From NCBI GenBank assembly GCA_965226795.1, contig CBDDDZ010000002.1, positions 352,001-416,000 of the forward strand: 64,000 nt of DNA. The letters run 5' to 3'. Source of the DNA: Candidatus Latescibacterota bacterium (GTDB lineage: Bacteria > Latescibacterota > UBA2968 > GCA-2709665). Each line of letters opens with the position of its first letter. The first letter of the stretch is position 1. The translations under genes were made by a program, and so were the position numbers. Below are positions 37,437-61,677 of this stretch, piece by piece. The notes under the pieces are model-generated. The model was not told where the DNA came from and did no database searches. It saw only the letters and a list, made by a program, of their open reading frames with translations.

Positions 37437-38669
37437 TCATTCCGCCTGCGGCTTTTCCCAGGACACCCGCATCCCCCGCTTTCGAAATTCGGCAATATGC
37501 GTATCGATTGACTCCCTCGAAAGGGGATTGCCGCGGACAAACAGCCTCCCCAGGTTGTTGAGCCCGGAAAGGGCGGATATGTCCATGACGCGGTTTTGGC
37601 CAAGATTCAGGGTTTCCAGGTTAACCAGCCCAAGCAAAGACTTTACGTCGCTGATGGCGTTGTTGTTGAGATACAGGTACTCGAGATTGGTCAACCCGGA
37701 TAGGGGCGACAGGTCCGTAATGCCGTTATGCCCAAGATACAGCCTTTTCGGGTTTCTCAACCCCGCCAGGGGCCGTAAGTCGCTGATGCCGTTCCTGTCA
37801 ACGTACAGCCGGGTCAGATTGGTCAATCCCGACAGGGGCGCCAGGTCACTGATGCCGTTTCTATCCAGGTCCAGTTCTTTCAGGTTCTTCAACCCGGACA
37901 GAGGTTTCAGGTCACTGATCCCGTTGCTGTCGAGACGCAGTCCCGCCAGATTGGTTAGTCCCGACAGGGGCTCCAGATCGCTGATACCGTTGCCGTCAAG
38001 GTCCAGTTCTTTCAGGTTTTTTAGCCCGGACAGAGGTTTCAGGTCACTGATCCCGTTGCCTTCGAGGCGCAGCCCCGTCAGGCTCGTCAGCCCGGACAGG
38101 GGTGAGAGGTCGCTGATCCCATTATTGTCGAGATCCAGTTCCTTCAAATTCTTCAGTGAGGACAGAGGCGTTATTTCACTGATGCCATTGCCTTCAAGAC
38201 GCAACCTTTTCAGGTTGGTCAGCCCCGACAGGGGCGAGACGTCACTGATGCCGTTATCAGCCAGATACAGCCTTTCGAGGTTTTTTAACTCGGATAGAGG
38301 CGTTATGTCGTTGATCCGATTGCACTCAAGACGCAGCCTTTTCAAGTTCTCCAGCCCGGCCAGGGGAGTAAGATCGCTGATGTCGTTGGCGTCAAGATTC
38401 AGCACGACCAGGTTCTTTGTAAACTCAAGCCCGTCCAGGTGAACAATGCTGTCACGCTGCGCTGCCAGATGGGTTAGTCTTGCGAGGTCGCCCACGGTGA
38501 TCGGCTCACCGTCCGGCTTGTTCAGGGAATCCCGAACAACCGATCGCAAGCGGTCATCCGGAATCAACGAGTGTGTGGATTGGGGAGCCGGGGGTTGCGC
38601 GACCTGGCGCGGGCCGGCGCAACCGAACACGCCAAAAACGGCCATCATCAAAATGACTCTGCAGGACAT
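37437..38669 (-). CDS. Internalin-like leucine-rich repeat lipoprotein
   Basis: VFGC lipobox, IPD..LR cap, about 14 22-aa repeats (NGISDL.PLSGL.NL..L.L). Confidence 0.9.
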   Translation of the reverse strand: MSCRVILMMAVFGVFGCAGPRQVAQPPAPQSTHSLIPDDRLRSVVRDSLNKPDGEPITVGDLARLTHLAAQRDSIVHLDGLEFTKNLVVLNLDANDISDLTPLAGLENLKRLRLECNRINDITPLSELKNLERLYLADNGISDVSPLSGLTNLKRLRLEGNGISEITPLSSLKNLKELDLDNNGISDLSPLSGLTSLTGLRLEGNGISDLKPLSGLKNLKELDLDGNGISDLEPLSGLTNLAGLRLDSNGISDLKPLSGLKNLKELDLDRNGISDLAPLSGLTNLTRLYVDRNGISDLRPLAGLRNPKRLYLGHNGITDLSPLSGLTNLEYLYLNNNAISDVKSLLGLVNLETLNLGQNRVMDISALSGLNNLGRLFVRGNPLSRESIDTHIAEFRKRGMRVSWEKPQAE

Positions 38670-38729: not shown

Positions 38730-39420
38730 ACACAGTTGTGCCTACTCGATCCCGGAAGGCGGGGCATCCGGCAAGCGGCTTGTCTGAGCGGGGAAACGCC
38801 TGGTCGTACAGCTTCCGCGGCCGCGCGGGATACGGGCGTAGTTGTGCCCACTCGATCCCGGTAACCGGGGTCTCCGCGATCACAGATGCGTACGCCGAAC
38901 TGTGAAGAGATGGTTAGGCTGAAGATTCGCCTGTGAAGATACGGTGAAAGCGAGGCGTTTACAAACCAAAACCGGAACGGCCCGGGCCGTTCGGTATCGG
39001 GCCGACTGAACAGCGGGAGAAGGGGTCTGGTGGGGAAGTGGCAACATGGGAGAGGGGAGGTGCGCGCCTCTCCGCAATCGACTTGCCAGGCCACTGAGGA
39101 AGCATTTACGAGGGTGGGGCAGACATTCCTGTCTGCCCGTAACATTGCACTTCTCCCCCAATGCAGACAAACGAAAAGCCGGCGCTGCCCCACGTGATTC
39201 TGGTACAGTCGTGCCCACTCGATTCCTAAATGCAGGGACCCGGCTTTCGAGGCATCGCGTTGTTCAGCCGCAACCCGATGGATGAAAGTGAACGTGCCAA
39301 CCCATTTGAAGGTCCAATCACTCCCCCCTTGAGGGGGAGTCGCCTGCCTGCGTCCGCAGGACAGGCAGGTAGAAGCCGAGCCGGACCCCTGAGCCTGCCT
39401 GCATTGAGCTTGTCGAAATG
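38730..39420. repeat. Cluster of nested short palindromes and repeats
   Basis: AGTyGTGCCyACTCGAT x3 (38734, 38840, 39207); GTGGGGCAGACATTCCTGTCTGCC (39114); CTCCCCC-TT-GAGGGGGAG; CCTGCCTG element (39343); TGAGCTTGTCGAA (39405). Confidence 0.7.
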
Positions 39421-39740
39421 TCGGAAAAATGCAGCGTTAATTTTTCTTTCTCGCCGCCACGGAAATAATCCGACTCAAAAATAACGGTCAAAGACTTGGG
39501 TCCAATTGTTTCGATTTTACCTTCGATCACTTCACTTTTGATCGGTGCATGTATACCCTCGCGAATCTTAATCCTTGCGCGCATGCCCTCTGTGAGTTTC
39601 CCCAGAACCTGGTCTCGCATCGTAGCCTGTCTGTCATCCCCGGGGACAACGTTCGTGCGTGCCAGGGGTTTCCAGGTACTGCATCCGACTGTCTGTAACG
39701 CAATCGCAACAATCAAGACGATACTCATGGCGCGTGTCAT
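39318..39740 (-). pseudogene. Tandem lipoprotein paralog 8 of 8; C-terminal Gly-zipper replaced by repeats
   Basis: Family N-terminus; similarity stops after LHFSDI at ~39420. Confidence 0.75.
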
Positions 39741-39902
39741 CTTTCAGCCTCCTCCCAATTTGAGACGGCGACAGAATTGTCCAAGGTCACACGGGCGGTT
39801 ATCCTTCCGGCTATCGGAAACCACGAAATCATCCTCATGGGTTGGTCCCTATTTGCGCAGGTCGCCAAATATGCGCTTCAGGTGTTCCAAGCAACTGTCT
39901 TG

Positions 39903-40350
39903 TTAGTCAAGCGTGAGCTGAGAAAATCCATAGACAATAAGGACAATAATCACCATCGCTCCGACCGCAAAGCCCTCCACAAACGCACCACGTTCACGAT
40001 TGGATTCACGATATTCGATGCTCGCGATGTCAGAATAGTGCAACGTTAACTTCCGACTGACATTACCCGGGGCATAAAACGACATTGGGGTTACTGTCAG
40101 CGATGTTAGCCCGATTTTTTCAATAATACAGTCGATAACTCGACCCTTGATCGACAAATGGGTACCCTCAAGGATCCTTAGCCTTACAGCCATCCCTTCT
40201 TTGAGCTTCCCCAGAACCTGGTCTCGCATCGAAGACTGTCTGTCATCCTCGGTGACCTCGTTCGCGCGAGCCACGGGTCGCCAGGTGGCTGCATCCGACC
40301 GTCTGCAGCGCAATCGTTACGATCAGGACGATATTGATGGCGCGCATCAT
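39903..40350 (-). pseudogene. Tandem lipoprotein paralog 7, +1 frameshift just after the lipobox
   Basis: MMRAINIVLIVTIALQTVGCS, one extra C near 40288, then family sequence resumes. Confidence 0.8.
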
Positions 40351-40508
40351 ATCAAAAGCTCCTCACTTCATTACAACGTGGCGGCGTTGTTCCAGACCCT
40401 AGGGGCCGTTCGCGACGAAATGGAAACACCGGATCGAAGTTCGTGGGACGGTCGCGATTGGCGTGGGTCGCCATATCTGCCCTTTGCATGTTCCGGGCAG
40501 TTTTTTTG

Positions 40509-40946
40509 TTAGAGTTGAGAAAATCCATAGAGAATAAGGACAAAAATCACCATCGCTCCGGCTGCTACGCCCCCCACAAACGCACCACGTTCACGATTGG
40601 ATTCACGATATTCGATGCTCGCGATGTCAGAATAATCCAGCGTTAACGTCCGAACGATATTACCGGGGGCATAAAAGGTCGTAGGGGTTACTGTCAGCGA
40701 TGTTGGCCCGATTTTTTCAATAATACAGTCGATAACTCGACCCTTGATCGGCAAATGGGTACCCTCGAGGATCCTTATCCTTACGGCCATCCCTTCATTG
40801 AGCTTCCCGAAAACATGGTCTCGCACCGATGACTGTCGGTCATCGTCCGCAGACTTGGCCACGCGAACCACCGGTCGCCATGTACTGCATCCAGCTGTCT
40901 GCAGCGCAATCGCTGCGATCAGGACGATACTGATGGCGCGTGTCAT
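40509..40946 (-). CDS. Tandem lipoprotein paralog 6
   Basis: TAGC lipobox, shared beta domain, GGVAAGA hydrophobic tail; GAGGAGG RBS. Confidence 0.85.
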   Translation of the reverse strand: MTRAISIVLIAAIALQTAGCSTWRPVVRVAKSADDDRQSSVRDHVFGKLNEGMAVRIRILEGTHLPIKGRVIDCIIEKIGPTSLTVTPTTFYAPGNIVRTLTLDYSDIASIEYRESNRERGAFVGGVAAGAMVIFVLILYGFSQL

Positions 40947-41111
40947 TCTGCAGCCTCCTCATTATGAGACAGCGTTACAGCATCTTAACAAGCACGACGG
41001 GCAGTTCCCGATCGCGACGATGAGGAAACCCCGGACGGAAGATCGCGGGGTGGTCGCAAATGGGCTGCGCCGCGAGACCGGCACTTCAGGAGTTCCTGGA
41101 CAGTTGTTTTA

Positions 41112-41558
41112 TCAGTCCAACGTAATCCCTGAAAGTGCCCAAGCCACAAGTAATAAGCCCAATACCGCTCCGACTCCAACACCCGCCAAAAAAGCACGTA
41201 ATCCACCCTTCGATTCACGAAATTCAATGCTCTCAATGTCGGAATAATGCAATGTTAACTCCCGACTGACGTTACTGGGTGCATAGAACGTCATAGGGAT
41301 TACTGTAAACGACGTTTGACCGACCCTCTTTATGATTCCGTCGATAACTTCACCCGTGGTCGGCACACGTCTACCCTCGCGGATTCTTATCCTTACGCGC
41401 ATGCCCTCTTTGAGTTTCCCGGGGAATTGACCTTGTATCAAAGTCTGTTTGGCATTCTCGGGCACGTCGTTCAAGCGGGCCAGAGGTCGCCACGTACTGC
41501 ATCCGAAAGATTGCAGCGCAATCGTTACGATCAGGACGATACTGATGGCTCGTATCAA
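41112..41558 (-). CDS. Tandem lipoprotein paralog 5
   Basis: SFGC lipobox, TTG start with GAGGAG RBS, AGVGVGAVLG tail. Confidence 0.85.
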   Translation of the reverse strand: MIRAISIVLIVTIALQSFGCSTWRPLARLNDVPENAKQTLIQGQFPGKLKEGMRVRIRIREGRRVPTTGEVIDGIIKRVGQTSFTVIPMTFYAPSNVSRELTLHYSDIESIEFRESKGGLRAFLAGVGVGAVLGLLLVAWALSGITLD

Positions 41559-41726
41559 TTTAAAGGCTCCTCACATTACAACTGAGTGGTGGAATTGTTC
41601 TGATCCACAGGGGCGATTCGACTTTGTAGCGGTAAGGGAACCCGGAGTTGAGGTTCGTGCAGTAGCCGCAAATGTAATGCGTCGGCATATTTGCCCTCGA
41701 GGTGTTCCGGGTAGTTGTTTCTCTAG

Positions 41727-42155
41727 TCAGAACAATGACAGTCCAATAACGAAGATAGCCAATATCGTTCCGACTGCTACGCCCCCGCCAAAAATAGCCA
41801 AGTCATTGGTGTCACGATATTCAATGCCGACGATGTCGGTATATGGCAACGTGAACGGCTTTTTTTCAGTATTACGTAAATAAAACGTGACAGGGGTTAC
41901 TGTCAGCGACGTTTCCCCGATCTTTTCAACAACACACTCGATAGCTCGACCCGTGATCGGTGCATGGGTACCCGCCCGAATTCTTATCCTTACGCGCATG
42001 CCCTCTTTGAGTTTCCCCAGAGCTTGTTCTCGCATAGAAGTCTGGTTGTTTTCCTCAGAGACCTCGTTCGCGCGAGCAAGGGGCCGCGTTGTAGTACAGC
42101 CGATTGTGTGTAACGCAATCGCTGCGATCAAGACGATGCTGATGGCGCGTATCAT
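41727..42155 (-). CDS. Tandem lipoprotein paralog 4
   Basis: TIGC lipobox, GGGVAVG tail. Confidence 0.85.
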   Translation of the reverse strand: MIRAISIVLIAAIALHTIGCTTTRPLARANEVSEENNQTSMREQALGKLKEGMRVRIRIRAGTHAPITGRAIECVVEKIGETSLTVTPVTFYLRNTEKKPFTLPYTDIVGIEYRDTNDLAIFGGGVAVGTILAIFVIGLSLF

Positions 42156-42319
42156 TCTGTAGCCTCCTCATATAAATACAGCTGACGGCAAAGTTCAAAG
42201 CCACAGCGGCGGTTCGCCTTCGCGACGAAGAGGAAACCCCGGTCGGACGTTCGTGGGACGGTCGCGATTGGCGTTCCGCCGACACGGCGGCACTTCAAGT
42301 GTTCCGGGCAGTTGGCTTG

Positions 42320-42760
42320 TTAGTCAAACTCGAGCCCAGAAAATGCCCAATACAACAAAAAGAATGCGGTTGCCGAGACCGCCGCCAACACAACAAGGGT
42401 TTTCTCAGAATCAAATTTTCGAATTTCGATGCTCTCGATGTCAGAATAATGCAACGCTAACTCCCGGCTGACATTACCCGGGGCATAATACGTGAAAGTC
42501 GTTACTGTCAGCGACGTTAGACCGACCTTTTCAATAATACCTTCGATAACTTCACCCTTTGTCGGTCCGCGGGTACCGTCGCGAATTCTTATGCGTACAG
42601 CCATACCCTCTTTGAGTTTCCCCAGAACTTGCTCTAGCATCGAAGTCGGATTGTTATCCTCGGAGACCTCGTTCGCACGAACCAGGGGTCGCCATGTACT
42701 GCATCCGACCGTCTGTAACGCAATCGCTACGATCAGGACGATGCTGATGGCGCGCATCAT
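42320..42760 (-). CDS. Tandem lipoprotein paralog 3
   Basis: TVGC lipobox, hydrophobic tail. Confidence 0.85.
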   Translation of the reverse strand: MMRAISIVLIVAIALQTVGCSTWRPLVRANEVSEDNNPTSMLEQVLGKLKEGMAVRIRIRDGTRGPTKGEVIEGIIEKVGLTSLTVTTFTYYAPGNVSRELALHYSDIESIEIRKFDSEKTLVVLAAVSATAFFLLYWAFSGLEFD

Positions 42761-42934
42761 TCTAAAGCCTCCTCACATTGCAACAGAGTGGCGGAGTCGA
42801 TCTAGTCTCGCATGTGCGATTCGACTTCGCAGAGGTCAGGGAACCCTGAGTAGAAGTTCGTGCATCGGTCGCATATGGAGTGCGTCGCTATATCGGTCCT
42901 TCAGGTGTCACGGGCAGCTGTTGTTTTGGTCCAA

Positions 42935-43372
42935 CTAGAACCCCAAAAGTGCAAGGCGTAAGAGATAGTAACTCAATATCGTTCCGGCTGCAAGACCCGC
43001 CATAAAACCCTTCGATACACCGGAAGTTGCACGAAATTCAATACTCACGATGGAAGAATAATGCAACGTCACGTCCCAGCTTGTATTGATGATTCCATAA
43101 AACGTCTTAGGGATTACTGTCACCGACGATGGGCCGACCTTCTTAATGATTCCCTCGATAACTCGACCTCTGATCGGCGCAGGGGTATCCGGCCGAACCC
43201 TAATCCTTACGCGCATGCCCTCATTGAAATTCCAAGGAAATTGTCCTCGCATCGAAGACTTTCCGTTTTCGTCGGGGTCTTCGTTCACACGAGCCAGGGG
43301 CTGCCATGTACTACAACCGACCGTTTGCAGCGCAACCGCTGCGATCAGGACGACACTGATGGCGCGTATCAT
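42935..43372 (-). CDS. Tandem lipoprotein paralog 2
   Basis: TVGC lipobox, GFMAGLAAG tail. Confidence 0.85.
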   Translation of the reverse strand: MIRAISVVLIAAVALQTVGCSTWQPLARVNEDPDENGKSSMRGQFPWNFNEGMRVRIRVRPDTPAPIRGRVIEGIIKKVGPSSVTVIPKTFYGIINTSWDVTLHYSSIVSIEFRATSGVSKGFMAGLAAGTILSYYLLRLALLGF

Positions 43373-43548
43373 TCTATAGTCTCCTCACATTTCGACAGAG
43401 TGACGGCGCTGTTCCAAGCCATGGGGGCAGTAATTCTTCTCGACTGCCAGGAAACGACGGACGCACGACTGAGAGGTGATCGCAAATGGGGTGCGTCGGC
43501 AATTATATTCTTCAGGAGCTCCTGCGTTGGCGTTATGTAAGTATTATT

Positions 43549-43983
43549 CTAACCCTGATGTCCGACAGCAAACAACACGAAGCCCAACCAAGCTCCGGCC
43601 GCCACCCCAATAGTGACGTGAGTTAAACCACGATTGAATTCGCGATTTTCGATGTACAAAATGTCAGCAAAATGCAACCTGAACTCTCTCTTGACCGTAC
43701 CGCGGACATGGTCCGTAATGGGGATCAGGGTCAGCGACTCTTGCCCGATCTCTTCAACTATGCAGTCGATTTCTTGCCCTTTGACCGGCGCAGGGGTACC
43801 CTCGCGAATTGTTATTCTTACAGCCATACCTTCCTTGAGTTTCCCCATAAGTTGCTCACGCATATAGGTCAGTCTGTCATCCTCCGGTACCTCGTTCGCG
43901 CGAGCCAGGGGTCGCCAGGTACTGCATCCGACCGTCTGTAACGCAATCGCTACGATCAGGACGTTGCTGACTGAGCGTATCAT
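43549..43983 (-). CDS. Tandem lipoprotein paralog 1 (first transcribed)
   Basis: TVGC lipobox, GVAAGAWLG tail. Confidence 0.85.
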   Translation of the reverse strand: MIRSVSNVLIVAIALQTVGCSTWRPLARANEVPEDDRLTYMREQLMGKLKEGMAVRITIREGTPAPVKGQEIDCIVEEIGQESLTLIPITDHVRGTVKREFRLHFADILYIENREFNRGLTHVTIGVAAGAWLGFVLFAVGHQG

Positions 43984-44288: not shown

Positions 44289-44571
44289 GTGATCAGATCC
44301 TTCAAGGACATGGAAGCCGAGAGGATATTTCACGGCAGGTTTTCCACCAGGTTACCGCACGATATTCAGCAAAACAGCCGCACGCAAGCTTGAGCCGTTA
44401 AACGCCGCGACGATCCTTGATACCCTTCGAATTCCTCCTGGCAACCGACTTGAAGCGTTATCCCACGATCGACATGGGCAGTATAGCATTCGCATTAACG
44501 ATCAGTGGCGTGTGTATTTCGTGTGGCGTGACGATAATGCCTTTGACGTGGAGATCGTCGATTATCATTAA
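44289..44571 (+). pseudogene. higB: HigB toxin with +1 frameshift (absent from the ORF track)
   Basis: MIRSFKD..., one extra A near 44372, then ARKL...PPGNRLEAL..DR.GQYSIRINDQWR..F.W....DVEIVDYH. Confidence 0.88.
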
Positions 44572-44580
44572 GGAGAGACA

Positions 44581-44880
44581 ATGACCACGCGCGACTTTCC
44601 GCCGATCCATCCGGGTGAGATCCTGTTCGAAGATTTCCTCAAGCCGATGCAGATGAGTCAATATCACCTGGCTAAGGCAATCAATGTGCCGCCACGCCGC
44701 ATCAATGAAATCATTCACGGGAAGCGGCGCATCACTGCAGATACGGCCTTGAGACTGGGCCGCTTCTTTTCAATGGAAGCACAGTTCTGGATGAATCTGC
44801 AAACCCGGCACGACCTTGAAACTGCCCGCGATACCCTGTCTGGCAGGCTGGATCGCGAGGTCCGCATACACACGGCTTAG
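44581..44880 (+). CDS. higA: HigA antitoxin
   Basis: PIHPGEIL.EDFL.P, RINEI..GKR.ITADTALRL, FWMNLQ. Confidence 0.95.
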   Translation: MTTRDFPPIHPGEILFEDFLKPMQMSQYHLAKAINVPPRRINEIIHGKRRITADTALRLGRFFSMEAQFWMNLQTRHDLETARDTLSGRLDREVRIHTA

Positions 44881-44939: not shown

Positions 44940-45851
44940 TCACGTCTCCCCGCATTTACCCTCCATCCCACGCACCGGATACGTCTCTCTGAACCTCTGA
45001 AATTCCATCCATGCATGGTCCGCCGCGTACCCGTTGGGAACCGCCTCGGTTCTTTCGGGGCGCTTGTAAACCACCCGGACGTGAAGCGTTACTGGTTCAT
45101 CCACCCTGAGTCCACCCACCTCCCACGCAAAATCCCAGGCCGGGCTGCTCTGGTCTGGCAGCAACGATTGCCCTGCGCCCGAAGGTGATATGTAGAACCT
45201 GAAGCCGGGATAGTCGTCCGCCATAATCTGGAACATCATCCCGCGGATCATCCCGAAATAGAACGGATAATCAAACGTACGTCCGGAATCCGAGTGGCTG
45301 AAGTTTCGCTGTCCATCCAGAAATGCCGTGGCCGGATCCCTTCCCCAGGGTTCCCGATCGGCCACGTCCGGATCGGTGGGAAAAATCATCGCACCCTGTC
45401 CGTGTACCGGATTGAAATAGTAGGTCCACAGACCCTTTTCGATAAAATGGATACCCTTTTCTGTTGGGGAATTTACATAACAGCACCAGCTGAAAGACGT
45501 GCGGTCCTGCGTCCGGTGCCCGGACCGGGCAGTCGCCGTCATCTCGTAATCGATATAGTGCGGCGCTTGGAGGCGATACGTCCCCCGCGTTTCCACGCAG
45601 TTGTTCGCCTCACATGCCTCATTGAACAGTTCGACCGACACGCCGTCTACCCGCCACACCGAAGGCCGCGTGCCTCTGTGGTGGCCGAAAAGCAGCACGC
45701 CGTTCCCCTGGGACACGGCCGTATGCCTGTCCTTGATCGACGTCAGAAACCAGACCCCGCTGTGTTCGTCCTTTCCTGCACCATGGTCCGTATCGTCCCC
45801 CACAATCGCCCGCAACTCTCCGGCGGATATGAAGTAACAGTGTTCACTCAC
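44940..45851 (-). CDS. Hypothetical protein, aromatic beta-rich (possibly mutarotase-like fold)
   Basis: GTG start with AAGGAG RBS; PHYID, YPFYFG, SPSGAG, PAWDF motifs. Confidence 0.7.
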   Translation of the reverse strand: MSEHCYFISAGELRAIVGDDTDHGAGKDEHSGVWFLTSIKDRHTAVSQGNGVLLFGHHRGTRPSVWRVDGVSVELFNEACEANNCVETRGTYRLQAPHYIDYEMTATARSGHRTQDRTSFSWCCYVNSPTEKGIHFIEKGLWTYYFNPVHGQGAMIFPTDPDVADREPWGRDPATAFLDGQRNFSHSDSGRTFDYPFYFGMIRGMMFQIMADDYPGFRFYISPSGAGQSLLPDQSSPAWDFAWEVGGLRVDEPVTLHVRVVYKRPERTEAVPNGYAADHAWMEFQRFRETYPVRGMEGKCGET

Positions 45852-45945
45852 GATATTCTCCTTGTCTTGTCTGAACCGCGTTGACGTCGCCGCGTTACGT
45901 TGCTCGCGGGCCGGGCGTCGTGCCAATTTTCTCTTCGGACGCCCG

Positions 45946-47439
45946 CTAAAATCGATACGTTGCGACAGCGGATAAGCTACCGTTTCTTCGGGGCGCCAGG
46001 CCGACCGAGAAAGCGGGTGCGCCAGGCAGTTCTCGTGAAATCTGGGACGTGATCGTTGCAGCAATAGTCGTTACAGAGATGTACCCGAGCCATACCTTTG
46101 CAATCCCGGCGTATCCACCCGGCGTGTTCATGAGGACAACAGTGGAAACCGCAGCGCACCCTAACATGCTTCCCGCGAATGTATGTTTGTATCGGTCCCT
46201 GGGATCTAATTTGCTAACAACCCAGGCTGTTGCAGCGGCATGAAGAATGGCGGGTGGGATGACCTCCTTTACCGAAGGATCGGGCGTATTCCCGCCGTAA
46301 AGGTCCGGGTAGTGAATCAGAGCCACGGGTGCGGCCGTAATGGCACCAAATACCGTCCCGAAAATTAACTTTGCGGCGATGCGCTCACCAGAGGCAGCAT
46401 CGCGTCCTGAAGCAAACTCGAAGTAATTTCTCGCTCTTTGAAGGTCCCGCTGATCTCTTGAGACGATGACGGTCACGACGTCATCATAGGCTATTTCCAA
46501 TTTTTCTGGTTGCGCCCAAGTGGCCTTGCCGCCGACCCGGTATTGAATCACAATGCGATCGGCAAATCTGTCAACGATCCTTCCGGTTGCTTTCCGTTTT
46601 GCGCCGCCGGAAACGTAGACGACGTGAACGTACAATCCCTCATTGAGTATAGAAGGGTTCAGGTCCCAGCGTGACATTCTGACGATGCCGCTCTGCGTCC
46701 ACCGCCGCCACCTCTCCACGGCCTGTAAGGTTTTAGCGAATGCGAGTGTGTCGATTTGCGTAGTCTCTATTTTCCACGTTTCCGGCTGTTCGGCCCCTGA
46801 TTTAATCACAATGCCATCCGCATCTATCTCCAGAACCTTTCCGGATGCGGTCCTATTGAGACCTCGCCACGTGTAGACCACGTGTGCATACGATCCGGTC
46901 GCGAGTTTCGAAAGGTCGAGATCTTTACGGGACATGACAGTGATTTTCTCCGCGGCCTGTCTTGCCTCTCGCCACGTTTCCAGCGTGAGCCGATCTTCCG
47001 CGATGGCGAGCATGTCGATGTCGCCAATCGCTATTTTTCCCGTTTCCGATGGCGTGGTCCCGGCTTCAATCACGAGACCATCCGGATCTATCCGCGAAAT
47101 AACGCCCCATGCCGCCCCTTCGATCCCTTCCGTCGTGTATACAACATGCGCATAGGATCCCGTCTTAAGCGTCGAGGGGTCCACTTCTCCGCGCGACATC
47201 ACGGTGATGCCCGTCTCCCCGCTCCGACTGCCGGACCGCTCCTTCTTATCCGCCCCACGATCGTCTTCGGTGTCCTGCTTGTCATTCGCAAATTCTCCGC
47301 GGGACGCGGTACGCGTCGAATTAAATGGCACGTTGCCAGCTGTCTCCGCAGGGGACAGTTGTCGTGCGGCGTCCGAACCGGTCGGAGCGGAGATGGTCGC
47401 TAGGATGGCTGCGAGCAACAACAGCGCGGATGACTTCAT
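45946..47439 (-). CDS. Secreted protein with three internal beta-domain repeats, hydrophobic region and C-terminal aromatic strand
   Basis: Signal peptide; three copies of MSR..LD...L..G.Y.HVVY; ends AVATYRF. Confidence 0.8.
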   Translation of the reverse strand: MKSSALLLLAAILATISAPTGSDAARQLSPAETAGNVPFNSTRTASRGEFANDKQDTEDDRGADKKERSGSRSGETGITVMSRGEVDPSTLKTGSYAHVVYTTEGIEGAAWGVISRIDPDGLVIEAGTTPSETGKIAIGDIDMLAIAEDRLTLETWREARQAAEKITVMSRKDLDLSKLATGSYAHVVYTWRGLNRTASGKVLEIDADGIVIKSGAEQPETWKIETTQIDTLAFAKTLQAVERWRRWTQSGIVRMSRWDLNPSILNEGLYVHVVYVSGGAKRKATGRIVDRFADRIVIQYRVGGKATWAQPEKLEIAYDDVVTVIVSRDQRDLQRARNYFEFASGRDAASGERIAAKLIFGTVFGAITAAPVALIHYPDLYGGNTPDPSVKEVIPPAILHAAATAWVVSKLDPRDRYKHTFAGSMLGCAAVSTVVLMNTPGGYAGIAKVWLGYISVTTIAATITSQISRELPGAPAFSVGLAPRRNGSLSAVATYRF

Positions 47440-47556
47440 GGATTCTCCTCGTTGAAATATTCGGCGTACTGTTTTTGTCGTGGTAGGTTAGAAGCAACTC
47501 TCAGCAGTCAGCTCTATTCGCGAATCAATCAACTCCACCCCCGCACAGTGGCGTGT

Positions 47557-47958
47557 CGAGCCGTTGAGGAAGCACGTGTGAAGGTGGGGCAGACATTCCT
47601 GTCTGCCGTTCTCATCGCCGGTCTCTCGGAATGCAGGCAGAAGAAGGGCTTCCGCCGCTTGTATAGCGTAGGGGCGACCGGCCGGTCGCCCCTACGCGTG
47701 GTCGCGCAGTCGGGCCTTTGCTGGGTTTTCCGCGATCGAGCGGACGAAGCGCCAATACTGTCTTTCGCTGCGTACCATGTGGTAATAGAATTCCTCGAGC
47801 CGGAACGTCTCGGTGACACCCGTGAGTTTAAGTTGATCCAATAGATGGCGCCGTCCCTCTTCGAGTGGGGGAGACGGCGGCGACTCGTGGCGTGCCCGGT
47901 CACAGGATTCTGAGATTTCGGTTTGATGTCTATGAGCAGACAAGAATGTCTGCTCCAC
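47557..47958. repeat. REP-like cluster
   Basis: GTGGGGCAGACATTCCTGTCTGCC at 47584, inverted copy at 47934-47958, GTAG palindrome at 47668; 47557-47650 resembles 39087-39180. Confidence 0.75.
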
Positions 47959-48069
47959 CTTTTCAAGCTTTTGTCCGAATTATCGCTTGCGAGCAGCAAA
48001 TCTTGCGTCTTTCTTCTCACCGCATTTCCCGTCTTTTCTCCGGTCTCCCCTCTTGCCTCTCACCGCCTT

Positions 48070-48690
48070 TTAGAATTCGAACGAGAGCGCGGCGCGTATA
48101 CCTCGGTTCTGTGTGTAGGCGACGTTCGGCTTGAGACCGTGTGGGGAGACTTCGACCCATTTGTCAGACTTGGTTACCGCACCAATGAGAGTGGAAGACA
48201 GAAAAATCGCGGCTGATGCAGACCTGAGATCCAGTATATCCGCTTCGTCCAGAAAAACCCCTGGGAAGAAATAGGCGCCCGCTAGAACAACACCAAATAA
48301 CATTCCTTTTGCCGTGTTTCTGGACCGTTTGATGCTGACTTCGAAATTCTCAACTGAAGACAGCGGCATTCGTTCTTCCCGACCCCGTTCGGATAGGATA
48401 ACAAGTGCGTGTTGATTTACACGGACAAACCGGCCGATGATCGGGCTTTTCGAGATCATCGGCGCTTCGACTCGAACTCTGGCCCTTTCTTTGTGAAGCC
48501 AACGCTCCACAACGCTTTGATCCTTCGAGTCTTTTTTGTAACGCTCGTTGCTATTTGATGAGGGAATGGTAAACCGCCCCGTGATGGGTTCGACCCGCGC
48601 GCCCTTCCGTCGCCCGGATGCACAAGAGAGAACTGGGACCATAATCTGAAAAAGCAGGCTCGCGATCAAAACTACGGCGGTTGACTTCAT
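48070..48690 (-). CDS. Secreted protein, same family (single beta domain)
   Basis: MKSTA signal, RVRVEAP domain, RNTAKG, TLIGA...DKWVEV, ends AALSFEF. Confidence 0.8.
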   Translation of the reverse strand: MKSTAVVLIASLLFQIMVPVLSCASGRRKGARVEPITGRFTIPSSNSNERYKKDSKDQSVVERWLHKERARVRVEAPMISKSPIIGRFVRVNQHALVILSERGREERMPLSSVENFEVSIKRSRNTAKGMLFGVVLAGAYFFPGVFLDEADILDLRSASAAIFLSSTLIGAVTKSDKWVEVSPHGLKPNVAYTQNRGIRAALSFEF

Positions 48691-48894
48691 GGACCCACCT
48701 CTTTGAAATACTCTGCCTACTGCTCTTGTTGACGCAGGTTAGAGGTAAGAGGGTAGAAGGAAGAGGAAAACGCGGTAAACTTGAAGCGCGAGAGATCCCT
48801 GTCGCACCTTTCGTTCTTGGTTTTTTCTCACATCTTACTTCTCCCCGTCTTTTGCGGTTTTTCTACCCTCTTCCGTCTCCCCTCTCAACGCCTT

Positions 48895-50115
48895 TTAGAA
48901 TTCGAATGACACCGCGGCTCCCAGTCCTCTGTTCTTTGAGGGGTCGACGTTAACGTTGAGACCCTTGATTGGAACGTCAACCCATCTGTCGGATTCGATC
49001 CCGGCCCCTATGAGAGTCGAAAGGGCAACTATGGGCAGAGATATGCAAAACCCTGTATATACTGTTCGCAACCACCTATGTCTCCCGGAACTCTTTGCGT
49101 CAACATAAACGACGGGAGCAAGGACACCTAGTCCCAGCAGAAAACCGATTCCCAAACCCTTTATTGTATTTCGATTGCGACCGATGTTTATTTCGAAATT
49201 GTCGATCGAATATATGGGTACCCTGAAGACTTCGTGCCTGGATAGGCCGACGCCAATAACGAGCGTATCCTGACTCACATCAAGCAGCCTGCCAACCAAT
49301 GATTTAGCGTCAGACCCCCTATTCGCGGACCTCGACGCGTTGAATCGGATCCTGGGATTCAACGGCAGGTGTCGTATGACTTGCCTCGCATGTCTCCATC
49401 CCGTTATGTCGCCCCGATTCTCCGCGGCAACGACGATAACTATATCGTCGTGTGCAATTCTTCCATCTGCCCAGAATTGGTCCCCACCCGCGTAATTGGA
49501 TCGGATCACAACATGTTCCGCGTCAATATCGGTTATCTTGGTCAGTCTGGCTCTCGTTCCATCCTCGAATTTATAGACCAAGTACGCATGCCAACCCTTT
49601 TTGAGCTTCGACAGGTCAAGATTGCCCTGTGACATTATGAGGAAGCGGCCTTGTGCACGCCTCTGCCATCTTTCAAGCGCTCGCCGGTCTTTGGCGACCA
49701 CGAGTGTGTCTATGTCGGCATATTGTACTTTTTCTTTTCTCGGGACTGTTGACGTTGATTTAATCCCAATACCGTCCGGGTAATTGTCGAAGATGACGCC
49801 GGTTGCCGTGCCGGAGGCGCCTTCCTTCCTGTGGATCACGTGCGAGTAGAAGCCCTTCGTTACTTTCGATAGATCCAGGTGCCGCCGTGACATCACCCAA
49901 ACATCCATCTCATACAGCGATCTTATGATCCTTGCCGCATTCTGCGCTGCGCGATCTTCCTCCGACCGCTGCCTGCTCTGAATACTGCCGGCCGCTTTCG
50001 GCCAATCGACGCCATCAGTCTCCTCGCCTTGAAGTTCCTGCGCGGCTATCGAAAAGCCCGGCACCAGGATCTCAATCAACATAATTGCGATCAATGTTAC
50101 GGCGGTTGGCTTCAT
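48895..50115 (-). CDS. Secreted protein, same family
   Basis: Two LDLSK..KG...H repeats, RNTIKGLGIG, TLIGA...DRWVDV, ends AAVSFEF. Confidence 0.8.
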   Translation of the reverse strand: MKPTAVTLIAIMLIEILVPGFSIAAQELQGEETDGVDWPKAAGSIQSRQRSEEDRAAQNAARIIRSLYEMDVWVMSRRHLDLSKVTKGFYSHVIHRKEGASGTATGVIFDNYPDGIGIKSTSTVPRKEKVQYADIDTLVVAKDRRALERWQRRAQGRFLIMSQGNLDLSKLKKGWHAYLVYKFEDGTRARLTKITDIDAEHVVIRSNYAGGDQFWADGRIAHDDIVIVVAAENRGDITGWRHARQVIRHLPLNPRIRFNASRSANRGSDAKSLVGRLLDVSQDTLVIGVGLSRHEVFRVPIYSIDNFEINIGRNRNTIKGLGIGFLLGLGVLAPVVYVDAKSSGRHRWLRTVYTGFCISLPIVALSTLIGAGIESDRWVDVPIKGLNVNVDPSKNRGLGAAVSFEF

Positions 50116-50528
50116 GGATTCACCTCGTTGAAATAGGCTTCGTACTGTCCTCGTCGATGAAGGTAAGAAGTAAGAAGGAAGAGGCGGTCGCCTAGTGGCG
50201 GCGGATCGGTAAAATCCCTATCGTGCCATTCGCGAGCGGGGCAGGCTCAGCCCCGGCCCATGTTCCCTGGCAAAGTGCACTACGAGGTGGGGCTCATTCT
50301 CCCGTCTTCTGTCTCCCGTTTCCCCGCATCTCGGATTTTCCTCCCCTCTCACCTCTCCCCTCTCCCCGCGTTCCTGCTTTTTTCTACCGTCTCCCGTCTA
50401 CCTTCTCCCCGTCTTTGCGGTTTTTCTACCCTCTTCTGTCTCACGTCTCCCCGCATTTGGCGTCTTGCCATTTAGGCTGTTGACCTTTCGACATAGTAAT
50501 AGCGACATCCGGGCGCCCTGGCACACGC

Positions 50529-51650
50529 TCAAAAATTGAATGATACCGCGGCTCGCAGTCCCTTGTCTCTTGTCGGCGCAATGCTCAGATTGATCCGCGA
50601 CGGGGAAACTTCGACCCATTTTTCGGTTGTTGTCGCGGCACCAATGAGGGTGCCGACAAGTGTCATTGCAGGTACGCCCACCAACGTGACGTAGGCATCG
50701 AGCAGTTTTTCTTGACCCAGTTTATCAGCGTTTGTCGTGTCACTGGGTTTTGACAATATTGCGGCGGCAGCCCCCACAAGTAGACCGATTGCCATGCCTT
50801 TCTTTGTTTTTCGATGCCGCCCCATGCTGACTTCGAAATCGTCTACGAAAGCACGGCGTATTCGTTCGGTGCCACGTTCGGATAGGATCTCAAGTGTGTC
50901 CTGGGAGGAACCTATAAACCTCCCGGTCATCCATTCCGGCGATATCGAGGGTGCCTTTAGGCGGACCCTGGGACCCTGGAGTTCACGCATTGCTTTTCTC
51001 GCTCTCCGCCAGCGATTCATGTCTTTGCGTTTACGGGTTACAACAATGCGCTCGATATCCTCCGCTCGGATTTTTCGTTGGCTACCGTTCCTTGATCTAA
51101 TCACGATATGATTCGCGCTTTTGCGCGTAATCACTCCCGTGGCGGTGTGGCTGACACCGGAGGATCGGTACTCGACGTGTGCGTGCCATCCGATTCTCAG
51201 CTTCCCGAGGTCTAGGTTTTCGCCGGACATCACCGACTCTTGAACCTGCAACATCTCACGCCTTGACATTCGCCACTGCTCGATGCCGCCTGGGCCGTCG
51301 GCGACGGCGAGGATCTTTATATCGTTGCGGGCAATTTCCCATCCCTTCCCTGTACCAGGCACGATGACGATGCGATTCGAATCGAAGTCGACGATTCGGC
51401 CCGTTGCCGCGCTCTCCACGCCCTTCGAATTGAACACCACGTACGCATACAATCCGGGCGAAAGCTTTTTCACATCAAGTTCCTTACCGGGCATGACCGT
51501 AACCGCCTTCGCGTGGAGCCTTTGAATGGCCCCTGCAATAGCCGGATCCCCCTGCTGCGCGCCTCGAAGTTGTGTGGCCGCGTGCGCAAGGGCGGGTGCA
51601 ATCGCGTTTGACATCAGGGTCGCGGTCAAGATGAGTGCGATAGATTTCAT
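50529..51650 (-). CDS. Secreted protein, same family
   Basis: Two repeats, RVRLKAP domain, TKKGMAIG, TLIGA...EKWVEV, ends AAVSFNF. Confidence 0.8.
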   Translation of the reverse strand: MKSIALILTATLMSNAIAPALAHAATQLRGAQQGDPAIAGAIQRLHAKAVTVMPGKELDVKKLSPGLYAYVVFNSKGVESAATGRIVDFDSNRIVIVPGTGKGWEIARNDIKILAVADGPGGIEQWRMSRREMLQVQESVMSGENLDLGKLRIGWHAHVEYRSSGVSHTATGVITRKSANHIVIRSRNGSQRKIRAEDIERIVVTRKRKDMNRWRRARKAMRELQGPRVRLKAPSISPEWMTGRFIGSSQDTLEILSERGTERIRRAFVDDFEVSMGRHRKTKKGMAIGLLVGAAAAILSKPSDTTNADKLGQEKLLDAYVTLVGVPAMTLVGTLIGAATTTEKWVEVSPSRINLSIAPTRDKGLRAAVSFNF

Positions 51651-59306: not shown

Positions 59307-60098
59307 CTATCCTCCCTGAATGACCAGCCGGCGGATTCCCCGGGCGAGCAGAAGGCGTCCCACGACGATCAAACCGAGGGTCCAGGCCAACTGGTGTGCG
59401 AAGAGCGGAAGGATTTCCGACGGAGGGATGTGGCCGATGTAGAGGCGAAATGGCACATCCATGAGTCCCCGGAAGGGCAGGATATCGAGGACGGTTCGCG
59501 CCCAGGCGGGAAAAAAGGGCAGGGGGACATACATGCCGGAAAAAATCGCCACGGCGGCGACCATGAGCGAGGAGATGCCCTGGCCCGAGACCGTCCAGAG
59601 CATGGAGATGTTGAGCAGATTCGCAATCGCGGTGCCCAGGAGAAGGGCCCCGAGGGTTGCGAGCGCCCAGGCGCCCGCGGAAGCCCAGGAGGCCGGGGGT
59701 TGAAGGCCGAAGAAAAGCCCGGCGATCACGAACATCGGGGCCGCCCGCAACAGCGTGGGGGCGGTTCGCCTGGCGAGGTCCCGGCAGAACCAGAACGCGC
59801 ACAGGTCCAGGGGCCGAACGAGTTCGTAAACCACCTGGCCCGACCGGATCATCGCGCGCATTTCCCTGTCTATGATCCAGGGCAGCATGCCCAGGAGCGC
59901 CTGGCCCAGCCAGATGTAGGTGATGACGTCCGTAAGGCTCATCGGCTGTGGAGCCGTGGTGGAGCGGTAGAAGGCGGTGAAGAACATCATGCGAATCAGG
60001 CCCCAGAATACCTGGGTACCCAGTCCGGCCAGGGCCGCTACCCGGTATTGCAGCAGCATCCGGAACCGGGCGCTGACCACGGCTGCATAGGCTTTCAT
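59307..60098 (-). CDS. ABC-2 family exporter permease
   Basis: LQYR, TYIWLGQ, SG.V.YEL.RP, SG..VPL.FFP, LVIQGG. Confidence 0.92.
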   Translation of the reverse strand: MKAYAAVVSARFRMLLQYRVAALAGLGTQVFWGLIRMMFFTAFYRSTTAPQPMSLTDVITYIWLGQALLGMLPWIIDREMRAMIRSGQVVYELVRPLDLCAFWFCRDLARRTAPTLLRAAPMFVIAGLFFGLQPPASWASAGAWALATLGALLLGTAIANLLNISMLWTVSGQGISSLMVAAVAIFSGMYVPLPFFPAWARTVLDILPFRGLMDVPFRLYIGHIPPSEILPLFAHQLAWTLGLIVVGRLLLARGIRRLVIQGG

Positions 60099-61080
60099 AG
60101 TCGCTCCTGTTCGTACATCCTGGCGATGATTTCTTCGATGGGCGGGCTTTCCACAAAAAGGTCCCGGACGGGGTGCCGGGCGGTGATGCGGCCGATGAGG
60201 GTTGCGGCAGAGACCCGCTCCGGGTCAAAGCTGAGGTGAACCCGGTGCCCGTCCCGCCGCACGACTTCGGCGTCCGGATCGGTAATGGTTCCGGCTTCGT
60301 CCACCAGGTCCACGGTGAGGCGCCGTTCCCGGGTAACGCGGGCTGTCAGGTCCTCCAGGGCGCCGTCAGAGAGGATCCGGCCATGACCGATGACCATGAC
60401 GCGGGTGCAGAGGGCTTCGATGTCGTCCATGTCGTGGGTTGTGAGGATGACGGTAACGTCCCGCTCCCGATTCAGGCGTTTGACGAAGTCCCGGACCCCC
60501 AGCTTGGAGACGGCGTCCAGGCCGATGGTGGGCTCGTCCAGGAAGAGAAGGCGCGGAGAATGGAGCAGGGCCGCGGCCAGGTCGCAGCGCATGCGCTGGC
60601 CCAGGGAGAGTTGGCGCACCGGAGTGTCCAGGAGCGGCTCCAGGACGAGGAGGGCGATGAGTTCGTCGCGGGCGTGCGCGTAGGCCCGTGGGGGGACGCG
60701 GTAGATATCGCGGAGCAGGTCGAAGGATTCGACGACGGGCAGATCCCACCAGAGCTGGGTAGCGCTGTCCGAATACAACGCCGATGTCTCTGACGTGGGG
60801 GGATGCGTTCCCTCCAGGGAACGCGGCCCAGGATCTCGCAACGGCCCGAATCGGGCACGAGAATACCGGAGAGGACCTTGACGGTGGTGGACTTGCCCGC
60901 GCCGTTGGGACCGATGTAGCCGACAAGCTCTCCCGGCTGAATCGAGAATGAGATTCCGTCCAGGGCGTTGACGTGGCGGTAGCTGCGGTGAATCACGCCT
61001 CTGAGCGCGCCCCACATGCCGGGCTTCCGTTCAGCAATGCGAAAGGTCTTCACCAGATTCTCAACGACAATGTGGGGCAT
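60095..61080 (-). CDS. ABC transporter ATP-binding subunit with two +1 frameshifts
   Basis: GPNGAGKST in one frame, IGVVFGQR in a second, LSLGQRMR/LFLDEPT/TTHD in a third; span is 984+2 nt. Confidence 0.88.
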
Positions 61081-61125
61081 TTTCGGTCTCCTTCTCCACC
61101 CATGGGCAGGGCAGCCGCCGTAGAC

Positions 61126-61165
61126 AAACAAAAAGCCCGCCGTCGAGATAACCTCGACAACGGGC
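61126..61165 (-). terminator. Intrinsic terminator/attenuator upstream of the ABC operon
   Basis: GCCCGTTGTCGAG-GTTAT-CTCGACGGCGGGC-TTTTTGTTT on minus strand. Confidence 0.8.
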
Positions 61166-61677
61166 ACTAGCCGATAACCGTGCGTGGCCTTCGAAAGGCC
61201 GCCGTATGTTTAGCCTCCAGGATACTTCGGTTTTTCCCCGGAGGCGCGTGTAGAAATATTCATGTTTATTATTTTCAAAGGCTTATAGGTAAAATCTCAC
61301 ATGATTCGGGCATTTGTTTATGGCAACACGGAAAAATATAACACGGCGGGGAAGCGCAGGCAAGGTTAATTTATCCGGGAACATTGAAGGCCTCTATGTC
61401 CGTATACGCCGTGCCGATTGTTCGCGAGCCGTCGCGTAGGGTCTGCAGACGTACGTCGACACCCTCGACGAACGACGCCCGGACACGGCGGCGCGCAACC
61501 TGGATTCTCTCTAAACGCCAGTCCGTAAAACACTTGCGTGTGTGCAGGGCACTAGTTATAATTGCTTAAACTCGTGTTGTGGAGATGCCGCGAAAGGGAA
61601 GGAAGGATCCGTATCTTAACGTGTCCGGCGGTGACGGAACGAAAGAGGCGTCCGGTCTTGCGTTGAAGGGATGGACG

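Follow-up and report, generated by a model that had tools for sequence, protein, structure and literature searches.

Organization of the array

Positions 39318 to 43983 of the stretch of DNA analysed here, 64,000 nucleotides of a Candidatus Latescibacterota genome (GenBank assembly GCA_965226795.1, contig CBDDDZ010000002.1, positions 352,001 to 416,000; hereafter the window), hold a tandem array of eight paralogous minus-strand genes, u1 to u8, which encode small proteins predicted to be lipoproteins. The genes start at 43983, 43372, 42760, 42155, 41558 (TTG), 40946, 40350 and 39740, each behind a GAGGAG ribosome site, and their start-to-start spacings of 611, 612, 605, 597, 612, 596 and 610 bp bear out the eight starts and the 596-612 bp period put forward in an earlier interpretation made without database searches (the sequence-only reading). 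Pairwise protein identity among the copies ranges from 41 to 79%, and a hidden Markov model (HMM) of the unit found no further copy in the 5.41-Mb, five-contig genome, the next match having an E-value of 2.2. The intergenic spacers have been duplicated along with the genes. They show no conserved RNA structure (RNAalifold energy -0.86, zero covarying pairs), no Rfam match and promoter-like sites at no more than chance level, and their interpretation as structured RNA or attC sites was rejected on the RNAalifold and Rfam results. An integron cassette array was likewise rejected, as the cassettes would all be paralogues, the spacers show no conserved structure and no integrase scores above the TIGR02249 cut-off.

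Six of the eight copies are intact, one fewer than the seven complete copies counted in the sequence-only reading, since u7 is frameshifted. One extra base near 40287, directly after the lipobox cysteine, puts the body of u7 out of frame, and in u8 a dispersed repeat stands past ~39411 in place of strand beta-5 and the membrane helix. The same u7 frameshift is found in run X1 (0.97 of words; this run may be the source sample), and contigs from X3, X7, X11 and X12 lack the extra base and keep u7 in frame. Comparison of contigs from eight runs also revealed strain variants in which copies are joined in register, namely u8 to u6 in X3, X11, X12 and X14, and, in X11, X12 and X14, u3 to the sequence upstream of u1; some of these joints could be mimicked by short contigs of divergent paralogues. 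Misassembly was rejected because overlapping or near-adjacent X1 contigs are identical to the array over most of its length and because relatives share the locus; these contigs, the relatives and the divergence of the copies contradict the possibility, raised with the sequence-only reading, that the array is an assembly artefact or invariant duplication debris. Contigs from the RNA libraries X19 and X20 cover parts of u1, u2, u3, u6 and u8 at depth 2-6, which is no evidence of expression given their small share of words and the possible presence of DNA.

Protein architecture and predicted fold

Sequence statistics refer to the 120 homologues listed among 155 found in the first protein search, with signal peptides and lipoboxes assigned by eye and by a regular-expression pattern. 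The lipobox cysteine is present in 100% of these homologues and the preceding glycine in 99%, and, with a basic n-region, a hydrophobic h-region and a lipobox with an invariant cysteine, the proteins are predicted to be lipoproteins. Residue +2 is serine in 108 of 119 homologues and aspartate in none, and the lipoprotein machinery components LspA and LolA score above cut-off in the genome of the window (G000). The 19-residue Kyte-Doolittle maxima of the window copies are 1.57-2.47 for u1-u7 and 0.58 for u8, and a membrane-length tail with a mean hydropathy of at least 1.6 occurs in 117/120 homologues. The signal peptide with its lipobox, the beta domain and the hydrophobic tail are thus as the sequence-only reading had described them, and its proposal of a lipid anchor combined with a C-terminal membrane helix is supported across the homologues.

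Its description of the tails as Gly-zipper-like holds in part: GxxxG occurs within the last 40 residues in 111/120 homologues, but the triple motif GxxxGxxxG is limited to 61/120 (three of the seven window tails), and the tail forms a single helix. This helix is followed by a short, mostly acidic end with a mean charge of -0.72 and no basic cluster; lysine or arginine is found among the final six residues in 27/120 homologues, and the last residue is acidic in 93/120. According to the positive-inside rule, a typical inner-membrane stop-transfer anchor carries basic residues behind its helix. A PEP-CTERM/GlyGly-CTERM sorting-signal family was rejected on these same terminal residues, and none of the corresponding NCBIfam models matched the four window copies scanned. 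A second cysteine, within an E/D-C-I/V motif in strand beta-2, is shared by 88% of the homologues and by distant members; it is kept in four of the eight window copies and replaced by glycine in u2, u3, u5 and u8. Such an unpaired cysteine could form an inter-subunit disulfide.

The AlphaFold model of u3 (predicted local distance difference test 68.5, predicted template modelling score 0.51) places in the mature chain a strand at residues 4-9, a helix at 19-29, a five-strand barrel at 35-95 (strands at 35-40, 52-60, 64-69, 81-85 and 89-95) and a second helix at 99-122; the extra N-terminal strand is conserved among homologues (W4, P6, L7, R9). The model shows the features of the Sm fold, with an N-terminal helix, a bent five-strand barrel and a 3-10 turn between beta4 and beta5. 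Its structural neighbours are nearly all Sm-like (Z 6.1-8.2), the best being Mnx chain E (Z 8.2, root-mean-square deviation (rmsd) 2.7, 77 aligned residues), followed by Hfq (Z 7.4-7.7), the Pelota N-terminal domain (7.6), GerQ (7.5) and RimP (7.4), at sequence identities of 7-28%. The Sm-like assignment is based on the consistency of this list, as the individual scores are middling. On the model, the array proteins are therefore predicted to consist of a barrel of the Sm/Hfq type, preceded by the additional N-terminal strand and followed by a single hydrophobic helix at the C-terminus, in agreement with the Sm/SH3-like strand pattern noticed in the sequence-only reading.

Family searches

None of the eight copies matched a Pfam family above cut-off. 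When 121 members were scanned, 16 Pfam families appeared at E 0.1, the commonest being S1_RRP5 in 13 members, over a short stretch where seen. NCBIfam and PADLOC, each searched with four window copies, and PHROGs, searched with four copies and two distant members, returned nothing useful; the sole match in a sequence search of the PDB was ribosomal L19 (E 0.05), and no phage record matched the array proteins. The Foldseek viral library gave a single unnamed match (E 8e-4, rmsd 16) and the metagenome-contig scan two short weak ones. Five Selenomonas matches of 23 residues each and a repeat protein (P0141) were set aside as spurious. The sequence-only reading had recognised no family, and the database searches agree with it for the members scanned. 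No published description of the array proteins was found in a search that was thin in the subscription literature, and the word "lipoprotein" occurs nowhere in the main text of PMC12993501. The array proteins thus represent a real family and architecture without a description in the literature searched.

Distribution and evolution

The host is likely a sponge-associated Candidatus Latescibacterota: sponge metagenome is the label of 4/22 listed runs, and, of three genome records that contain full-length copies, two carry this phylum label. Four database matches bear the NCBI label Gemmatimonadota or Gemmatimonadetes and derive from metagenome-assembled genomes, and a Dehalococcoidia-labelled 4.3-kb contig, which may be misbinned, holds a copy with 67% identity. 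The 120 homologues listed from the first protein search are all close, and an index-free search gave only 36 clusters at 50% identity. Across the phylum a match was found in 17 of 168 genomes, every one within the class, and among the 14 other genomes of the genus in seven, with 5, 3, 2, 1, 7, 5 and 3 copies, the single copy (in G008) being broken. Look-alikes by Atlas features (0.90-0.92) are unnamed clusters of 131-145 aa in Bacteroidota, Pseudomonadota and Acidobacteriota and serve as a lead only.

In a tree of 32 copies, in which 13 of 29 inner branches were unresolved, subtypes are common to several species: u1 forms a clade with copies G002_1, G010_2 and G004_1 (support 97/87), u4 pairs with G004_3 (98/99) and u8 with G010_5 (97/92), and u6/u7 represent a recent duplication. 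The ratio of nonsynonymous to synonymous substitution rates (dN/dS) is 0.26-0.89 for all 28 pairs among the eight window copies. In ten chosen close pairs it is 0.26-0.54, compared with 0.11-0.19 for flanking genes (five pairs) and 0.26-0.43 (four pairs) for neighbouring genes of larger multi-repeat proteins, here called "big". By region, dN is lowest in the first strand (0.20), followed by the barrel core (0.32), the beta3-beta4 loop (0.70) and the tail (0.86). No positive selection was seen in pairwise or region-averaged values; a dN/dS check had been proposed with the sequence-only reading, and at this resolution all values are below 1. A crude PHI-like incompatibility test, which rate variation can confound, suggests mosaicism (p 0.008). 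For the u1 pair of G000 (43549-43983) and G002 (L013:13956-14396), dS is 0.36, whereas flanking genes of the same two genomes give 0.73-1.02, which hints at allele exchange between species. Overall, the array is undergoing birth-and-death evolution under relaxed purifying selection and is neither debris nor a misassembly.

The wider island

Together with its neighbours the array makes up a larger syntenic island of exported Sm-repeat envelope proteins, of which it forms one arm, a setting that the sequence-only reading had overlooked. The products of four genes upstream of the array (45946-51650) are exported proteins that have between one and three barrel domains, a hydrophobic C-terminal part and a tail ending in Phe (Table 1). 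The model of the 373-aa protein contains three barrels, which are likewise Sm-like, along with a pair of membrane-length helices and a returning strand. The "big" repeats each have an extra strand and stand in tandem within one chain; none of the window members matched a Pfam or NCBIfam family above cut-off. All six congeneric carrier loci that were read have their copies in this same island, among or next to "big" genes and upstream of the genes for a histidine kinase and a sigma-54 regulator. Copy number, a point left to be checked in relatives by the sequence-only reading, varies from 0 to 8, and the locus is fixed in the six loci read. In the single-contig genomes G009 and G014 both flanks are kept with zero array copies, and the "big", kinase and regulator genes remain. 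In three relatives, PorV/PorQ-like genes lie between the "big" genes and the array, one scoring above and one below the NCBIfam cut-off.

Profiles of the unit and of the "big" repeat that include distant members align with 86% hhalign probability (pairwise E 4.7e-6), and the unit profile scores above 10 bits in 7 of 58 "big" repeats and in none of the reversed or shuffled controls listed. On these profile comparisons, the array units are probably homologous to the "big" repeats, and we infer that they form the lipid-anchored, single-barrel branch of one envelope family, in which the first strand of the unit may replace the strand that follows the second helix of the larger proteins. Nine distant genomes had a match, and eight contexts were read: a "big" gene is adjacent by BLAST in three, with a probable fourth; one context holds a tandem pair and another places the copy beside a response regulator.

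Table 1. Coordinates of the array, its spacers and nearby features, as positions within the window
Feature	Position	Strand	Description
u1	43549..43983	-	Intact 144-aa predicted lipoprotein: lipobox, Sm-like barrel, C-terminal hydrophobic helix; in cross-species clade
u2	42935..43372	-	Intact 145-aa paralogue; most diverged among full copies
u3	42320..42760	-	Intact 146-aa paralogue; copy used for the AlphaFold model
u4	41727..42155	-	Intact 142-aa paralogue; tree partner G004_3
u5	41112..41558	-	Intact 148-aa paralogue; TTG start
u6	40509..40946	-	Intact 145-aa paralogue; recent sister is u7 (79% identity, dS 0.22)
u7	39903..40350	-	Frameshift near 40287, just 3' of the lipobox, in this strain
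u8	39318..39740	-	Truncated; homology to other copies up to ~39411
Spacers between copies	39741..43548	-	Seven, paralogous, ~165-175 nt, GAGGAG ribosome site at end
Dispersed repeat	39247..39426		Overlaps end of u8; 13 further blastn pieces in genome; very high metagenome-contig depth
Leucine-rich repeat (LRR) protein	37437..38669	-	Leucine-rich repeats, lipoprotein-like N-terminus; downstream island flank in several relatives
higBA addiction module	44292..44880	+	Inserted in island; higA above TIGR02607 cut-off, higB-like frame split by frameshift
497-aa "big" protein	45946..47439	-	Exported; three Sm-like repeats; hydrophobic, Phe-ending C-terminus
206-aa exported protein	48070..48690	-	One Sm-like domain, two hydrophobic helices, Phe-ending beta-type tail
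406-aa "big" protein	48895..50115	-	Two repeats, last Sm-like domain, helix pair, Phe-ending tail
373-aa "big" protein	50529..51650	-	Modelled; kept in genomes lacking the array

Several further features of the island and the window deserve mention. The "big" family, represented in the loci L013, L014, L016, L017 and L018 as well as in the window, is characterized by a signal peptide and up to four Sm-like repeats, its C-termini consist of a helix pair with a Phe-ending tail or are barrel-like, and its gene copy number varies between genomes. The PorV/PorQ-like barrel genes (L013:12623-13657, L014:11240-13339 and L016:7333-9436) are absent from the window, and higA recurs in the island of several relatives, with two copies in G002. 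An open reading frame (ORF) of no recognised family at 44940-46064 (-), probably ~303 aa from a later start, has 83-88% identity in several relatives and is present only in some versions of the island. A truncated reverse-transcriptase-like ORF of group II intron type, as judged by eye, lies at 12846-13745 (+), with similar sequence inside the island in L016 and L018. Further dispersed or short tandem intergenic repeats at ~47450-47970 and 50240-50460 show high depth in metagenome contigs, and an ATP-binding cassette transporter ATPase-like gene at 60095-61167 (-) is apparently split over two frames. In two genomes of the sister family (L019:7352-11513 and L020:7328-12110) a single distant copy has on one side a gene for a lipoprotein-like protein of 471-499 aa and on the other side genes for an LpoB-family protein, a small outer-membrane barrel and a further, unknown protein, and the copy of G022 has an internally duplicated barrel.

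Possible roles of the array proteins

We tentatively favour the view that the array encodes doubly anchored envelope lipoproteins whose Sm/Hfq-like barrels form edge-to-edge rings, probably at the outer membrane and with a structural role. The proteins would be exported by Sec, lipidated and cleaved by LspA and delivered to the outer membrane by Lol, after which the C-terminal helix would insert into the bilayer, with the helices bundling, and the barrels would pair through beta4-beta5 into rings in which paralogues are perhaps mixed. Such rings might scaffold or stabilise the membrane and its proteins, as SlyB/YfgH or DUF903 rings would, with the variable loop and helix tuning the choice of partners, and recombination between copies would expand and contract a variable, dispensable set of envelope building blocks. 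Sm-fold proteins form 5- to 8-membered rings via beta4-beta5 (10.1101/140376), the rings of DUF903 lipoproteins are hexameric or heptameric (10.64898/2026.05.26.727983), MnxE3F3 is a hetero-hexamer with alternating subunits (PMC5622069), and for YfgH, rings like those of SlyB have been predicted, with a stabilising effect on the outer membrane (10.64898/2025.12.22.696046). An outer-membrane location is favoured over a stop-transfer anchor because no basic cluster stands behind the helix, and it is consistent with island neighbours that have Phe-ended beta tails, barrel-like C-termini or PorV/PorQ-family barrels. A stronger version, in which the paralogues co-assemble like eukaryotic Sm proteins and the helices of the mixed rings build an alpha-helical outer-membrane channel or scaffold, we consider unlikely; the recombining array would then supply a combinatorial, strain-specific ring repertoire, with the multi-repeat neighbours acting as pre-fused ring segments, and such an exported Sm fold that spans the membrane would be without a description so far.

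Several observations weigh against ring-forming outer-membrane lipoproteins. Z-scores of 7-8 fall in the range that the search tool calls common, and in the PDB Foldseek found no match for the u3 model that reached E 0.001. Closure of a ring could be blocked by the additional strand at the N-terminus, and the neighbours aligned over residues 1-96, this strand included, are Pelota and RimP, which are not known as ring-forming Sm proteins. Extensions often block beta4-beta5 pairing in proteins of the Sm fold (10.1101/140376). The strongly hydrophobic C-terminal helix could keep the protein in the inner membrane. The comparison of unit with "big" repeat gives a non-significant 5% hhalign probability when close homologues only are used, and four of the eight distant contexts lack a "big" neighbour, two of them placing the copy in an operon with an LpoB-family lipoprotein gene. 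Finally, the function is not essential, because seven of the 14 congeners have no match and two of the eight copies are broken here.

The extra strand is also central to the next explanation, less probable than ring formation and rather unlikely, namely that each protein is a capped monomeric Sm/SH3-like binding module at the membrane, forming no ring or pore, which would have the neighbouring multi-repeat proteins or the barrels as partners, or else would recognise a ligand from the host or the environment by way of its variable loop. The conservation of this strand, its alignment with Pelota and RimP, its recurrence in the tandem repeats of the "big" proteins, a linkage to "big" genes that recurs in distant genomes, and a beta3-beta4 loop that varies more than any other part of the barrel (dN 0.70 vs 0.32 in the core) would all fit. 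Yet many ring formers are among the closest structural neighbours, "big" genes occur without any unit in G009 and G014, and in half of the distant contexts read the units lie apart from such genes.

Retention in the inner membrane, with the lipid in the outer leaflet, the helix as a stop-transfer anchor and the acidic tail in the cytoplasm, appears unlikely. The periplasmic Sm domain would then have a sensing or scaffolding role, perhaps linked to the two-component genes at the island ends. In hydrophobicity the helix equals an inner-membrane segment (Kyte-Doolittle values of 1.6-2.5) and the histidine kinase and sigma-54 regulator genes do flank the island, but these genes persist where the array is absent, most members lack basic residues after the helix, none has aspartate at +2 and the island neighbours bear outer-membrane signatures.

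Also unlikely is an immunity array, in which each subtype would neutralise a different periplasm-targeting toxin of competitors within the dense microbiome of the sponge, or block phage entry. It would account for a constant export signal with a variable body, gain and loss at strain level, the suggested mosaicism and the low dS of the G000-G002 u1 pair compared with its flanks. Against it, the window and the six congeneric loci hold no toxin or secretion gene adjoining the array except the broken higBA (the neighbours are Sm-repeat proteins, barrels, the LRR protein and higBA), no Hcp was found in G000 (a 96% complete genome), no pair among the eight copies reaches a dN/dS of 1, and the locus, which holds a fixed place among envelope genes, is no cassette of unrelated immunity genes.

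A near-neutral accordion, with one useful gene and surplus copies made by unequal crossing-over that drift towards loss, is improbable. Broken copies here and in G008, the seven congeners without any copy and a dN/dS above that of flanking genes point in its direction, and yet subtypes are kept across species at dS 0.36-0.77 with dN/dS well below 1, and the lipobox, barrel core and membrane helix are retained in nearly all 120 homologues. Exported Gly-zipper pore-forming toxins against other bacteria are very improbable, for although a GxxxG-rich hydrophobic helix is joined to a fold able to oligomerise, the lipid anchor would tether the protein to its producer, the triple-glycine motif is limited to about half of the homologues and genes for immunity or delivery are absent next to the array. 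Of the analogies drawn in the sequence-only reading, the tandem lipoprotein island therefore fits, and the immunity array and the pore-forming peptide, the latter because of the one helix instead of a two-helix zipper, are weakly supported.

Comparison with known systems

Ring-forming envelope lipoproteins, as tentatively preferred above, can be compared with several known systems. SlyB has a two-helix zipper topology, and the Sm domain of MscS is cytoplasmic and comes after the helices. Tandem paralogues with a conserved export signal and a variable body have precedents in the staphylococcal lpl clusters and in immunity arrays of the type VI secretion system (T6SS), both of which show copy-number variation, chimeras and pseudogenes. 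The present array differs from these clusters in its unrelated fold, its extra helix, the lack of a cognate toxin in the loci read and its position among homologous Sm-repeat proteins with other anchors.

With regard to the fold, Hfq and the Sm/Lsm proteins, MnxE3F3 and the MscS middle domain share the same barrel as the u3 model (Z 6-8), and there are precedents both for hetero-rings of paralogues (Sm, MnxE3F3) and for a membrane-linked Sm heptamer (MscS) (10.1101/140376; PMC5622069). Unlike Hfq and Sm proteins, however, the array proteins are predicted to be exported and lipid-anchored, and RNA binding is not implied.

The closest likenesses are to two families of envelope proteins. DUF903 (YgdR-YgdI; SCOP b.38.1.6) also comprises small lipoproteins with a signal peptide, a lipidated cysteine and an Sm-like barrel, and its members have been crystallised as hexamers or heptamers (10.64898/2026.05.26.727983; 10.1101/140376). 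The array proteins differ in that they are 142-148 aa in length, carry an additional strand and a helix ahead of the barrel as well as a membrane helix at the C-terminus, and are encoded in a variable tandem array. Membership of DUF903 was rejected for lack of a Pfam match, none being found in the 121 members scanned at E 0.1; solved DUF903 members are absent among the 50 structural neighbours listed for the u3 model, which does not exclude unlisted ones. SlyB and YfgH share with the array proteins a lipid anchor and a Gly-rich membrane-spanning helix, and differ in that the array proteins have one C-terminal helix and a soluble Sm-like domain. The SlyB/Gly-zipper 2TM family was rejected on account of the single helix, the restricted triple-glycine motif and the absence of any Gly-zipper Pfam match in the eight copies or the 121 members.

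If rings form and mix, the array proteins would be a small model system, open to expression, of alpha-helical assemblies in the outer membrane and of how the envelope varies among uncultured sponge symbionts; otherwise, the array would be an ordinary lineage-specific lipoprotein expansion. The island as a whole, in which one type of barrel is combined with several anchors (lipid and helix, helix pair with a Phe tail, or a barrel-like C-terminus), points to an unannotated envelope class. In conclusion, the family combines known parts, namely a DUF903-type Sm lipoprotein, a SlyB/YfgH-type anchor and helix, and a variable tandem island, and by analogy the array proteins most resemble a DUF903-SlyB hybrid set in a tandem lipoprotein island.

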